Virus record (IMG/VR): IMGVR_UViG_3300028783_000001
Location: 104,738-168,737 of that record
Length of the DNA: 64,000 bases
From: a virus
Strand: one strand, 5' to 3'
Of the stretch, positions 15,921 through 20,510 are shown piece by piece. The position numbers and the translations under genes were made by a program. The notes beneath the pieces were generated by a model. That model was not told the DNA's origin. It was given only the letters and a program-made list of their open reading frames with translations, and ran no database searches. Numbering within the stretch: position 1 is the stretch's first letter; each line of letters begins with the position of its first letter.

Positions 15921-15983
15921 GGTTGTTCTCCTGGTATGGTAGTGGGCTTGGTAGCAAGCCGGATGGCATGATCAAAATTGGTA

Positions 15984-16561: not shown

Positions 16562-19096
16562 CTAGTACATACCATTCGCGGCAGCCATTTCGATGGTGAA
16601 GGTGGCGGACTGACGCGTAACAACCACGTCTAGCTGGATGTACAAGATGCTGAGGGTCGGCTTGATCCACAACGCTACCTTACACACACGCTGGTCGATC
16701 ACTTGAGGCGTGTTGTTCGTCGCGTCGCACTGGACGTAGAAGTCGGTTATCCCCATCGCGTCTTCAATTGGCTGCAGGATCGCATTCTCGACGGTCTGGA
16801 TCGTGTGCCAGGTGAATGGATTGTTGGGCTCAAACACCGAGTAGGCGCAGACGTTTACGGACTCCGTAACTACGATGATGATGAGCCGAACCACCGGCAC
16901 CGACTGAAGCGCACTCATCTCCTGCTGAAGCGTATACTCGCCCCAGATGGTGAAGGCTGCACCAAACTTACGGATACAGTTTACCTGCGCCGCCGACATC
17001 AGGTCGCGATCACCCTCGACGTATGTCACGCGAAGGGCTAGTGCTGTATTGATGAGACCGCGCGTGAGACCGGCTGGGGCCCACCAAGCGGCGGCGACCT
17101 TATCCGTGTAGGCGTATTGACATGCAACCAGTCCACTTGGTGGAACATAGCGGCGCGCGCCCATTTGGGAATCGTAGATCAGGATATCTGGAGAGTAGAT
17201 TGCGCCCCAGAAGCTTGATATGTTCATCACGTTTTGGCGGTAGTTTACAGCCGCTGCTGGAGTCTGCTGATCGGACGGCATGTCCAGAACAGAGATGCAA
17301 TCCATGCGTGCAGCCGCGAGGTTTAGCATACACTGATGCACTTCTGGAGTGGCATAGCCGCCGTTGATCAGGATACGAACTGTGACTTGGTCGGTATTTG
17401 CAAAGTCGGCCCAGCCATTTACGACCTGTGCCGTCGATGGTAGGGAGCCGTCCGATCCACCACCAAGGTAGCATGCGGTGTTTAGCGCGCATACTGGCTG
17501 CGTCGCGGCGTTTACCGTTCCAGAGAATAGTGGATTCACATTCACCTTCACGCGCGGCGAGGCGTTTGCACTGGTATTGATTACATACTCAAACCCAGTA
17601 GGATTGCCGAGACCGTCGATGCCGTTGGCAAAGGTGCAGGAATAGAGTTCTGTCGGCTGAGCAAACGTGAAGCTCTCATAGACCACGAAGTTGAAGCCGT
17701 TGGTGCTCGGCGTGTTGTTTAGTGTTACCGTATAGGTGATGGTAGCTTGTGTCACTCCGAGCGTAACAGCTAGAGCGGAGATGGAGAGTATTGTAGCGGA
17801 GTCTGGGGCAATGAGCGTGACGATGCGGTTACCAGACGTTCCGTTGTTGGCATTTGTTACGGCGGCAGTAGCACCAGGGAACGCTGTGGTGTAGGCTGCG
17901 CAGAGGGCAGTCAGCGTATCATTGTTGGTAGCGTTTGTAGTTCCGTCAAACGTCGCGGAGAATGTGGTGCCATTGATCGTAGCGGTGACCACGTTGTTTA
18001 TTAGCAGAGCACCAGAGAAGCTTAGCTGCACGCGCTGCGGAGTTCCAACGTCGACGTTTGTGATTCCACATGCGATACCAGCTTGGCCGTAGGAATTTCC
18101 CTTGGCCGACCATGATCCTGGATTCTCCGCAACGACAAACGCGAGCCAGTCGGCTTCGTAAATGTTCGAGGTTGGAGCACCCGCGCCGGTAATGACAGCT
18201 GAGATTGTCATTACAATGGCCTCAGGAGAGATTACGCGGATGATGGGATAATTTGTTCCGAGCGGAACTACATAAGCGAGCCCGCCACCGGCGAGACCGT
18301 CGAGCACGGTCTGGATCGACTGGGCTACTGCATTGATGGTCGTGTTGTGATCTGTGGCGAAGTTTACCACCGTACCAGATACGCTGTTGATCGTGATGGT
18401 GCAGACGCTACCGGAGACGAATAGGCCGGTAAACTCGATGTCCTGGACGTCGCGATTGACCTGCGTGTAGTCGTATTGCGACCCCGCTGGCATCGTAGTG
18501 AAGTTTGTGCCGGCTGCATTACCACCAATAGTGTTGTTGCTTAGCAGACCGAGACCGTAGGTAACATCGGCAGATACCACGCGGTCCATCCAAAGGCTAG
18601 TGCTCTCCAACAGGAAGGCGTAGGCCGAGTCTAACATGTAGCCGATCTGTGGGTTTGGCAGACCATACGTCTGAACGCCCTGATTGTAGCTCGATACGAA
18701 GTTTGGACCGATTGGCCCACGCATTGCTGCACCAACGATGGCTCCGATGCTATCATTGACGTAGGATGGCTGTAGGCTGTCGTCGATGATGCGTGGATAG
18801 CAAATGTTCAACGGGGTTCACTACGCCCCACCCGCTCTTTCGAGCTGCTGCATGTTGCCATGCAGATCAGACTATATCACGGTCCTGTAAGGACCCTCTT
18901 CGTTTCGAGCACCAATCGTTTGTGCTCTACTCCCTTGCGGGATAGTCGTTAGAGGTTTTCCGCTTTCCAGACTAGCTGGTAGGCTTCTTTCCTACGGGAT
19001 TGGGTCAGTGACCGTTCCCCGTTTAGAAGAGTTTGCTGAGGTAGTTACCTACTTCAGGCGCCGATCCTTAACGCCGGGTGACACTCTGAAAGTCAT
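16562..19096 (-). CDS. tail sheath protein, join(19071..19096, 16562..18800), 754 aa spliced
   Basis: spliced N-terminus MTFRVSPGVYPRIIDDS is the canonical sheath SPGVY motif; ENPGSW, LGGGSDG, VPPSG, WWAPAG..RG, FEPNN motifs. Confidence 0.95.
18801..19070 (-). ncRNA. group I intron (270 nt, no ORF) in the tail sheath gene
   Basis: 5' exon ends in U (GGCGU) and pairs with intron GCGCC (P1 with U-G); P7 elements AACGACUAU and GAUAUAGUC; terminal G; GGAU can pair with 3' exon AUCC (P10); splicing restores the frame (GT|C = Val). Confidence 0.92.
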
Positions 19097-20133
19097 GAGG
19101 TTGCTCCTTGCTTGGTTAAGCCCATCGCGGAGTATTTCATCCTGACGGATTCGAGAGATGTGGTGTCTATTGGAATGAGAACTGTTCCATGCCTCTTACT
19201 AAATTGGCGGATAGCTACCTCCAACTTAGCTGGCGACATCTCACTACCACCACCTTTATAGTTGTTATCGGCAGAAGAAAGGACCTGAAGGTTTGCTGGG
19301 TGGCATAGCATGCTCCACGGAGTCTGCTTTCCATCATGTGAGTAGCCGTCGGCAACACTAATAATATGATCGACGACGTAACCCTTCGAGTTTAAATCTT
19401 TTGCGTTGCGTATTAGATTGCCGTACTTTGATATCATGACATTAGTATAGTGTCGAACCCTCATGCGATAGGTCGACTTGTCTAACGGCTGGTCCACAAC
19501 AAGTCGGTTTGGATGAATCCACTCAACTCGTACAGGATTTGCGTGTAGCTTACGTCCGTTAGCATAGCTTCGACTCTGCTTAGCCCGCTTGTTATTCCAC
19601 ATTCCATACGCAGTTAGAAGCGACTTGGCCCGTGGACATCCGGCTAGACGTTGAATCTGAATCGAGCTAAGGTCTTTTATCTGGCGTAGGTAGATCATGT
19701 AGTAGATGTTGTACCTATTTGCGCTACGCGACTGCGTCCTAATACCAACTAAGCAATCTGGTGGTATCCATAAACCATCAATTATCCGGTTTAGACGGGC
19801 CGTATTTAGGATTGGCAACTTGCGCGAGGGCCTTACCACTAAGTTGTTACTGACTAGTACATTCTGGATCTTATAAGCAACCTCGCGAGCACCGAATCCA
19901 CAGGGAACACCGACCCTAGTTAGTGCAATATGTGGTGGGTCTCCTAGAACCATTCGTCGCGTAATATAGGCAAGCTCGTCATAGGACATAAGCTGAGAGG
20001 TAGATTGTTGTGGCAATTCCGTCTGTACCGTATTTGCCCACTCAAGTACCATGTCTATTGACACTCCCTTCAATGCGAGGGAATGTCTACACCAACGATC
20101 TGGATGCTTGATTGGATCGACCCTGAACTTCAT
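19093..20133 (-). CDS. free-standing HNH homing endonuclease
   Basis: VVDHIISVADGY..CHPANLQVL..NNYK; AT-richer than flanks; ATGA overlaps at both ends. Confidence 0.8.
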   Translation of the reverse strand: MKFRVDPIKHPDRWCRHSLALKGVSIDMVLEWANTVQTELPQQSTSQLMSYDELAYITRRMVLGDPPHIALTRVGVPCGFGAREVAYKIQNVLVSNNLVVRPSRKLPILNTARLNRIIDGLWIPPDCLVGIRTQSRSANRYNIYYMIYLRQIKDLSSIQIQRLAGCPRAKSLLTAYGMWNNKRAKQSRSYANGRKLHANPVRVEWIHPNRLVVDQPLDKSTYRMRVRHYTNVMISKYGNLIRNAKDLNSKGYVVDHIISVADGYSHDGKQTPWSMLCHPANLQVLSSADNNYKGGGSEMSPAKLEVAIRQFSKRHGTVLIPIDTTSLESVRMKYSAMGLTKQGATS

Positions 20134-20177
20134 CTACACACGCCGGGAGAAACTCTGAAAGTCATGGTATTGCTCCT
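20130..20177 (-). repeat. upstream duplicate of the sheath RBS and first 9 codons (mini-ORF MTFRVSPGVCR*, 20130..20165)
   Basis: AGGAGCAATACCATGACTTTCAGAGTTTCTCCCGGCGT here versus AGGAGCAACCTCATGACTTTCAGAGTGTCACCCGGCGT at 19071-19108. Confidence 0.9.
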
Positions 20178-20228
20178 GTATTACGTGTGGCTTGGTCTAC
20201 ACCAAGGCTCTCATAAGTTTTAACACCG

Positions 20229-20510
20229 TCAGCGCATGGCACCGATCTCATTGCGGAGCCTTACCGCTTCCTCTGCACTCTTCGGCGGACGGATAGACGG
20301 CTCTGGGATTGGGCGGCTAGGTACGATGGTCGTTGGATCGATCAGCTCTGGCTTGGCATTCTTGTCGACGTGGACGCGCACGTGGTTTGGAACGTGCCAG
20401 CCAAACTTATCAGCTACCCTGACTCGCATGGCCTTAGCTGGAACGTGTACGCTATCGCCGTCAAACGACTTCAGGACAATGGCGTGGTCTTTGGGGTTTG
20501 ATATGATCAT
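20229..20510 (-). CDS. hypothetical protein (probably virion)
   Basis: ORF with AAGGA RBS in the structural operon. Confidence 0.6.
   Translation of the reverse strand: MIISNPKDHAIVLKSFDGDSVHVPAKAMRVRVADKFGWHVPNHVRVHVDKNAKPELIDPTTIVPSRPIPEPSIRPPKSAEEAVRLRNEIGAMR

Follow-up and report, generated by a model that had tools for sequence, protein, structure and literature searches.

Anatomy of the tail sheath locus

The window analysed here is a stretch of 64,000 nt (64 kb) from the IMG/VR virus record IMGVR_UViG_3300028783_000001 (positions 104,738 to 168,737), and it carries, at the 5′ end of the tail sheath gene, a 1.3-kb unit that consists of a gene for an HNH-like nuclease, a second copy of the sheath start and a group I intron that contains no open reading frame (ORF). 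The window is part of a viral contig of 168.7 kb with an estimated completeness of 66%, and the source is therefore a jumbo phage. The minus strand carries every feature treated here, and each was read off the window sequence itself (Table 1). An earlier reading of the letters alone, hereafter the original prediction, had taken the unit to be a single insertion. The comparative results agree with this: the HNH-like gene, the rebuilt start and the intron travel together, are absent from at least six related phages and are patchily distributed on the sheath tree. The unit is a real, well-defined composite element, and the comparative series that it forms with its relatives is unusually informative.

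Table 1. Features at the 5′ end of the sheath gene, listed in the direction of reading (positions in the window)
Feature	Coordinates	Strand	Basis and remarks
Conserved 93-aa gene directly before the sheath gene in all relatives	20229..20510	-	ORF list; marks the left border of the insertion
Resident sheath leader	20166..20211	-	Hairpin CTTGGT GTAG ACCAAG (20206-20191) and Shine-Dalgarno sequence AGGAG (20177-20173)
Copy A, original sheath start	20130..20165	-	26-nt block 20165-20140, now an 11-codon upstream ORF (MTFRVSPGVCR)
Gene for a likely free-standing HNH-like homing endonuclease, 346 aa	19093..20133	-	Conserved motif, weak fold matches, helix-turn-helix-like N-terminal half
Shine-Dalgarno sequence AAGGAG for the functional sheath start	19104..19109	-	Within the last codons of the HNH gene
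Copy C, functional sheath exon 1	19071..19096	-	MTFRVSPG V-; the last 5 nt, GGCGU, form P1 with the guide sequence
ORF-less group I intron, 270 nt	18801..19070	-	Rfam RF00028; guide sequence 19067-57; terminal G 18801
Sheath exon 2	16562..18800	-	Opens C TAT CCA CGC and runs to the sheath stop; PHROG 23, Pfam

The start of the sheath gene is present twice. Copy A, with its ATG at 20165-20163, reads ATG ACT TTC AGA GTT TCT CCC GGC GT and has its last nucleotide at 20140, and copy C reads ATG ACT TTC AGA GTG TCA CCC GGC GT and has its last nucleotide at 19071. The two differ only at two synonymous third positions, exactly as had been predicted. A search with the sheath-start pattern returned these two sites only in 64 kb and none in 100 shuffles. 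The repeat extends to 38 nt with 87% identity (19071-19108 and 20140-20177, spacing 1069) and includes the Shine-Dalgarno sequence AGGAGCAA; further upstream, ACCAAGC is found in both leaders at different spacing. The near identity of the two copies, together with their common leader motifs, suggests a recent duplication, a close donor or homogenisation. The overlaps between stop and start codons described in the original prediction were also read directly. Copy A continues into G TGT AGA TGA, whose stop (20132-20130) overlaps the ATG of the 346-aa ORF (20133-20131) in the form ATGA; this ORF ends in TCA TGA, and its stop (19095-19093) overlaps the ATG of copy C (19096-19094).

A run of group I models, which the original prediction had proposed as a check, matched RF00028 of Rfam at 19080-18848 with 54.2 bits (gathering score 50) over the full-length model (1-253). 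In P1, the exon sequence GGCGU (19075-19071) pairs with GCGCC (19061-19057), with the pair U19071.G19061 at the splice site; P2 with its GUAA loop, the conserved core and the hairpins P9, P9.1 and P9.2 are also present. When three homologous introns were compared, 22 of the 70 predicted pairs keep pairing through compensatory double changes. P10 covaries with exon 2, in that the guides GGAU.G and GAUAG occur with CUAUCC and the guides GGUAG and GGGUAG with CUACCC. The predicted splicing joins GT to C TAT CCA CGC and would yield MTFRVSPGV followed by YPRIID, whereas the unspliced RNA reaches a stop seven codons into the intron. Nine related sheath proteins that are encoded uninterrupted start MTFRVSPGVY(P/E)RIID, and the peptide SPGVYPRII that intron removal had been predicted to restore equals the N-terminus of intron-free relatives. 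The predicted splice sites are as well supported as sequence analysis allows.

The sheath identity of the interrupted gene was established from the 749-aa ORF at 18811..16562 (minus strand), which matched PHROG 23 (E 2e-64) and the Pfam sheath C-terminal domain. The nearest cultured sheath relatives are 28-38% identical and belong to jumbo phages of Rhizobium, Burkholderia, Ralstonia and Pseudomonas, and homologues start MTFRVSPGVYPRIID. The program-made ORF list offers only the TTG at 18811 as the sheath start, and this codon lies inside the intron, so that the list misses the true start, as had been noticed earlier. The intron layout also accounts for the truncation of the sheath N-terminus by gene callers in at least five metagenomic phage contigs. 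In the literature searched, no report of an intron in a tail sheath gene was found, which is not proof of absence.

The introns of three related loci (L003, L005 and L013) are 81-86% identical to that of the window, and so is the intron of a fourth, L017. RF00028 matched those of L003 (69.3 bits) and L005 (50.3 bits), and Rfam gave no report for those of L013 and L017 even at E 0.01. In its 3′ half, the intron shows 72-76% identity to introns that carry an embedded endonuclease in the DNA polymerase genes of phages, T7-like ones among them. Ten more intron loci turned up when a core pattern of 29 nt was used for scanning. Eight of them (L018, L019 and L021-L026) are thymidylate synthase genes split after ...LYQR by introns with embedded endonuclease ORFs, several of these GIY-YIG-like as in T4 td; one is another sheath gene (L017), and one is an ORF-less intron in a DNA polymerase A gene (L020:5846-6135). 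The L020 intron and the sheath intron agree in their guide sequence and in the end of their 5′ exon, TTCGGCGT. Ectopic insertion of a polymerase intron at another site with this GGCGU may therefore have given rise to the sheath intron.

The 346-aa protein is likely an HNH-like homing endonuclease, as judged from its sequence and its modelled fold. In alignments of 19, 73 and 4 sequences, D255 H256, H278 P279 x N281, N290 and K293 show no or almost no variation, their spacing is that of the HNH/HNN motif, and the catalytic residues are invariant in all four intact copies of the gene. The nuclease domain folded alone gave a model with a predicted local distance difference test score (pLDDT) of 90, and the top 50 Foldseek matches were almost all HNH domains (Cas9 HNH, Gme HNH, ZRANB3, McrA, PtuB and Cap5), with weak E values of 0.05-1.6. 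The best VIA match, also weak, was the HNH protein of phage GVE2 (5h0o; Z 3.2, root-mean-square deviation 3.7, 69 residues aligned). A fold search with the model of the whole protein found only generic helix-turn-helix folds, in the N-terminal half. In an exhaustive search of 5.8 and 1.8 billion proteins, three full-length relatives were found (45-49% identity), those of L003, L005 and L013, and about 70 further proteins share only the C-terminal ~130 residues; among 73 distant relatives, two matched PF13395 HNH_4 (E 1.8e-4). The relatives carry varied helix-turn-helix, zinc-finger and CapR modules, and phage homing enzymes have varied DNA-binding modules of these types. A tblastn search with the nuclease against 50,697 phage records gave no match, and related-locus searches gave no relatives, either with the nuclease alignment in viral and metagenome collections or with the sheath protein. 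The ‘IPA-HNH’ family of ICP1 was considered and rejected, as its N-terminal HNH and C-terminal AP2 are the opposite architecture.

States of the locus in related phages

Intact copies of the nuclease gene are found in four loci (the window, L003, L005 and L013), and all four lie immediately upstream of a sheath gene with the intron. None of six intron-free loci (L006, L007, L008, L009/L010, L011 and L014) carries the nuclease or the intron. In these empty loci the 93-aa upstream gene abuts the sheath leader, and the sheath gene has an uninterrupted CCN GGN GTN TAY CC allele. The comparison with insert-free relatives that the original prediction had suggested thus found the uninterrupted allele directly after the same upstream gene. 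An assembly artefact was ruled out, since assemblies made independently from different samples show the arrangement again.

The left junction of the unit differs in every carrier, in both position and sequence. In the window, copy A is intact to GGCGT and its stop overlaps the nuclease ATG. In L013 it is intact to GGCG, 1 nt short of the intron site, and the stop of the short ORF abuts the nuclease start codon; in L003 it is intact to CCC, 5 nt short of the intron site, with a TGATG overlap. The stranded start copies of these three genomes thus end 0, 1 and 5 nt before the point where the intron is inserted, and the sequences that follow them are unalignable. L005 has no copy A, and its nuclease gene comes directly after the upstream gene and starts MSFK. 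In L017, a sheath-like start (TTG ACG TTT CGC GTC GGC CCG CGC GT) with a normal leader is fused in frame to the nuclease N-terminus. The original prediction that both copies break off at the same nucleotide therefore holds in the window and does not extend to these four relatives.

The two starts also differ from each other in L003 and L013. The differences between copy A and copy C are mostly synonymous and include Ser AGY versus TCN, and in these two genomes they involve multi-step synonymous switches (CGC/AGA, AGT/TCA and AGC/TCG), a pattern expected of two starts with separate histories under protein selection and not of a decaying duplicate. In all five carriers, AGGAG lies at equal distance from copy C, and the AAGGAG of copy C falls within the 3′ end of the nuclease gene. 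In the window and in L003, no Shine-Dalgarno sequence belongs to the nuclease itself, and copy A keeps a strong one. Stop/start overlaps are found in three genomes, and short ORFs equivalent to copy A abut the nuclease start in L003 and L013.

Decay stages of the element were also found. In L017 (reverse strand, original coordinates 1148-1427), nuclease residues ~35-295 are deleted, while the 3′ end of the gene, copy C and the intron are kept. In L012 (523-777), the sheath gene is uninterrupted and has no intron, and its unusually long leader of 235 nt encodes the last ~58 residues of the nuclease (48% identity, E 7e-16), with a stop that still overlaps the sheath ATG. The first sheath codons of L012 are almost identical to those of copy C in L003. 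Because of this nuclease stub and these L003-like codons, L012 is best read as a former carrier after precise intron loss. In the P0012 contig, a gap of 645 nt separates the upstream gene from a 5′-truncated sheath call that starts at about residue 75. The gap has room for a leader, exon 1 and an intron and not for the nuclease, and it may represent an intron-only allele.

The four intact carriers are spread over three lineages of the sheath tree, beside empty relatives. Monophyly of the carriers was rejected in the approximately unbiased (AU) test (p 0.0003) at a cost of 275 log-likelihood units, and at least three changes are needed. The identities among the nucleases are star-like, at 42-49%, and do not track sheath identity; for example, L003 and L013 have sheaths that are 68% identical and nucleases that are 42% identical. 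From these sequence comparisons, we favour repeated invasion rather than a single old event.

The nuclease itself begins with residues that resemble the sheath start. Its first seven residues in the window are MKFRVDP (14 of 21 nt identical), and BLAST aligns them with the in-frame MTFRVGP of L017, which supports an origin of the nuclease ORF as an in-frame insertion at the intron site. In sequence, the nuclease N-terminus has the look of a third sheath start, older than copies A and C and kept in frame. A 17-nt direct repeat with 88% identity was noted between 20085-20101 (nuclease codons 11-16, PDRWCRH) and 20195-20211 (the 5′ arm of the copy A leader hairpin), and it is probably due to chance.

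The surroundings of the sheath gene are in part conserved. The 93-aa upstream gene is homologous in 9 loci, with 11 invariant residues in the alignment, and a hairpin with AGGAG also precedes the sheath ATG in intron-free relatives. ACCAAGC, which is part of a small hairpin, occurs on the minus strand of the window at 15946-15952, 19110-19116 and 20190-20196, where it precedes the Shine-Dalgarno sequences of both sheath starts and of the tube gene by about 20-30 nt. It is over-represented in the window (18 matches versus 8.5 expected) and may be a late-leader element. The sheath leader of L008 (3872-4001) encodes a 38-aa ORF with a lipoprotein-like signal, LIALAFTGC. Two of the intron-free relatives, L007 (6293-7255) and L011 (5295-6056), have an extra ORF of ~320 aa between the sheath and tube genes. 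These ORFs have no Pfam match and are unrelated to the window nuclease, and their arginine-rich repeats suggest another homing-type insertion. In L005, four transfer RNA (tRNA) genes and an RtcB ligase gene (181-1720) lie a few kb upstream of the sheath module.

Probable collaborative homing and the alternatives

We consider it probable that the unit is a two-partner selfish element, an ORF-less intron together with a free-standing HNH nuclease in the 5′ end of the sheath gene, and that it moves by collaborative homing in a new layout. The endonuclease gene is free-standing and adjoins the interrupted gene, ending at the ATG of exon 1, and the intron has no ORF. Endonuclease and intron are gained and lost jointly among the relatives, with L017 and L012 as decay states. 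A classic intron-encoded endonuclease would have its ORF between the splice sites, and here the ORF lies 5′ of the functional exon 1.

Starting from the observed anatomy, the RNA structure with its covariation, the restored protein sequence, the presence and absence of the unit in relatives and the decay stages, we infer cleavage specificity, splicing, translational coupling and the order of events as follows. The intron would be spliced out of the late transcript, so that sheath protein is still made, and the 3′ end of the nuclease gene would supply the Shine-Dalgarno sequence and a replacement 26-nt exon 1. When relatives with an intron-less sheath allele infect the same cell, the nuclease would cut or nick that allele at the intron insertion site or immediately beside it; the predicted substrate is the intron-less CCCGGCGTCTATCC. 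The carrier would be protected, since the intron splits the nuclease site. The three junctions that lie no more than 5 nt from the insertion site fit a break there. Repair would bring the nuclease gene, the replacement start and the intron together into the broken gene. Right-hand homology would come from exon 2, and left-hand homology would be limited to the 26-nt exon 1, which would move the intron alone, or to the diverged sheath-like head of the nuclease ORF. The DNA to the left of the nuclease gene appears too diverged for homologous repair, and the left end would therefore undergo illegitimate joining at a point a few bases before the start codon of the nuclease. This joining would strand the recipient’s own start, copy A, upstream.

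Once stranded, the short ORF of copy A with its strong ribosome-binding site would feed ribosomes to the nuclease through the stop/ATG overlap, and the overlap of the nuclease stop with the sheath ATG would act likewise. The best reading of the exon-1 duplication is that it is an invasion scar that now drives HNH translation. Such a use of the original start for the nuclease fits both the missing Shine-Dalgarno sequence and the stop/start overlaps in three genomes. The element would have begun as an in-frame insertion at the intron site and would have re-invaded more than once. Recombination between the 38-nt direct repeats could delete the nuclease gene and leave an intron-only allele.

Several points weigh against collaborative homing. 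The element can do without the duplication, as L005 lacks copy A. The leader motifs AGGAGCAA and ACCAAGC are common to both window copies, and in-situ duplication or conversion fits them equally with import from a close relative. The divergence among the nucleases (42-49% identity) is equal to or deeper than that among the sheaths, and old vertical inheritance with repeated loss could produce this. The HNH identity in the original prediction is likely from the conserved D-H...N...N motif, but each fold match by itself is weak (E 0.05-1.6; Z 3.2), the 346-aa nuclease has no Pfam match even at E 10, and its nuclease domain has no sequence match in the PDB. Finally, five or six carriers are known, and one of them, L013, is a contig with 3x coverage and probable indel errors.

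Vertical inheritance was weighed in its full form, as an old arrangement without current mobility in which a single ancient tandem duplication trapped the nuclease gene, patchiness is the outcome of repeated deletion, and the nuclease may have lost its activity on the sheath site. Between carriers, nuclease and sheath divergence are about equal, L017 and L012 supply stages of decay and loss, the 38-nt direct repeats flanking the nuclease gene offer a route for its deletion by recombination, and there is no obvious co-conversion tract in exon 2. However, a single duplication does not lead one to expect left junctions that differ in position and sequence in each carrier, nor the multi-step codon switches between copies A and C in L003 and L013, which point to separate histories under selection at the protein level. 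These same two phages are sisters by their sheaths (68% identical) and yet carry the most divergent nucleases (42%), and all four intact nucleases keep invariant catalytic residues. With monophyly rejected, at least three or four independent and precise losses of the 1.3-kb unit would also be required. We therefore regard a purely vertical history as unlikely.

The architecture could also be read in another way, with the whole 1339 nt (20139-18801) as one group I intron that has its 5′ site at copy A, the nuclease ORF in a giant P1 loop and copy C as an internal pseudo-exon. The window allows this, in that the CCCGGCGU with which the guide sequence pairs is also present in copy A, and splicing from either 5′ site would yield one and the same protein; the upstream copy of L017 shares its reading frame with the nuclease, which is also the arrangement of intron ORFs fused to an exon. 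The relatives do not allow it: L005 has no copy A, copy A of L003 lacks GGCGU and that of L013 reads GGCGA, and copy A is therefore impossible as a 5′ splice site in these three. In contrast, each of the five carriers has a copy C that keeps its ATG, its amino-acid sequence, a strong Shine-Dalgarno sequence and a compact P1 hairpin. P1 is closed with copy C in the Rfam alignment, and a P1 that spans 1 kb would be a poor competitor of the local hairpin, which makes a single large intron quite improbable. Even less credit can be given to the view that two selfish elements, independent of each other, happen to be 26 nt apart, namely a nuclease whose target is elsewhere (for example in the upstream gene or the leader) and an intron with its own route of arrival, for example reverse splicing of a DNA polymerase intron. 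The sister intron in the DNA polymerase A gene of L020, with the same guide and the same 5′ exon end, makes an ectopic transposition to GGCGU plausible, and L012 has a nuclease stub without an intron. Nevertheless, every intact nuclease adjoins an intron, intron-free loci have no intact nuclease, and the stranded starts of three genomes end no more than 5 nt from the insertion site, which indicates a recombination break there. A chance neighbourhood of the two is thus very improbable.

Within collaborative homing, the nested copies of the sheath start might be working parts of the element and not just scars, an idea that we put forward tentatively and hold to be rather unlikely. The nuclease ORF may have been born fused to the first codons of its target gene, and the sheath-like head or copy A may serve at each invasion as a left homology arm and as a translation entry site. 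The element may in this way carry its own ‘landing pad’, with each failed homologous landing adding a copy. Copy A of the window may also be a second 5′ splice site for the same guide, and the nuclease would then be conditionally intronic; if true, this would tie its expression to splice-site choice.

Comparison with known systems

Collaborative homing has been described at few phage loci. Among them are psbA/F-CphI of cyanophage S-PM2, the introns in DNA polymerase genes of T3/T7-like phages and the ICP1 terminase intron with its T5orf172 gene (PMC3984707, PMC6083498, PMC10055350), and how such arrangements arise has been called unclear (PMC10055350). As in these cases, the sheath intron has no ORF and interrupts an essential gene at a conserved site, the nuclease gene is not part of the intron and adjoins the interrupted gene, and the two partners occur or are missing together. 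Unlike in these cases, the nuclease gene lies within the 5′ end of its target gene, between the original and the duplicated start, and not in a neighbouring intergenic region, and three ORFs are chained by overlapping stop and start codons. The host gene is also different, being a tail sheath gene, and so is the nuclease, which belongs to an unannotated HNH-like family and whose cleavage at the insertion site is predicted here from sequence. As this family has no Pfam model, it may be a useful new scaffold for homing enzymes.

The sheath intron belongs to the same lineage as classic mobile introns such as T4 td with I-TevI and the DNA polymerase introns of Yersinia phage Berlin and its relatives, and it has its 5′ core in common with thymidylate synthase introns. 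These introns carry an endonuclease (GIY-YIG-like or EndoVII/HNH) in an intron loop, whereas the sheath intron is 270 nt long and has no ORF. Homing endonuclease genes can also split genes by themselves, as mobE does in nrdA of Aeromonas phage Aeh1 and mobA between genes 39 and 60 of T4. The sheath locus resembles these insertions in that a free-standing HNH gene sits within a coding region and host function is kept. It differs from them in that the sheath is not made as two polypeptides; the nine-codon head is duplicated, and the full-length protein would be made from the second start.

The locus and its relatives form a natural series that comprises empty loci, intact loci with three left junctions, an in-frame fusion, a deleted nuclease and a stub with the intron lost. 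This series bears on where the nuclease cuts, on how a nuclease and an ORF-less intron can move jointly under poor flanking homology, and on the translation of the element from the ribosome-binding site of its host gene. In the homing-endonuclease cycle modelled by Goddard and Burt, invasion is followed by fixation, decay, loss and re-invasion, and this cycle has been discussed for introns (PMC4059233, PMC3984707). As in that cycle, empty, intact, internally deleted (L017) and stub-only, intron-lost (L012) states coexist in close relatives of the sheath locus. Unlike the cases described for it, the sheath locus holds a two-part phage element in which scars that we attribute to invasion, the stranded copies of exon 1, are preserved.

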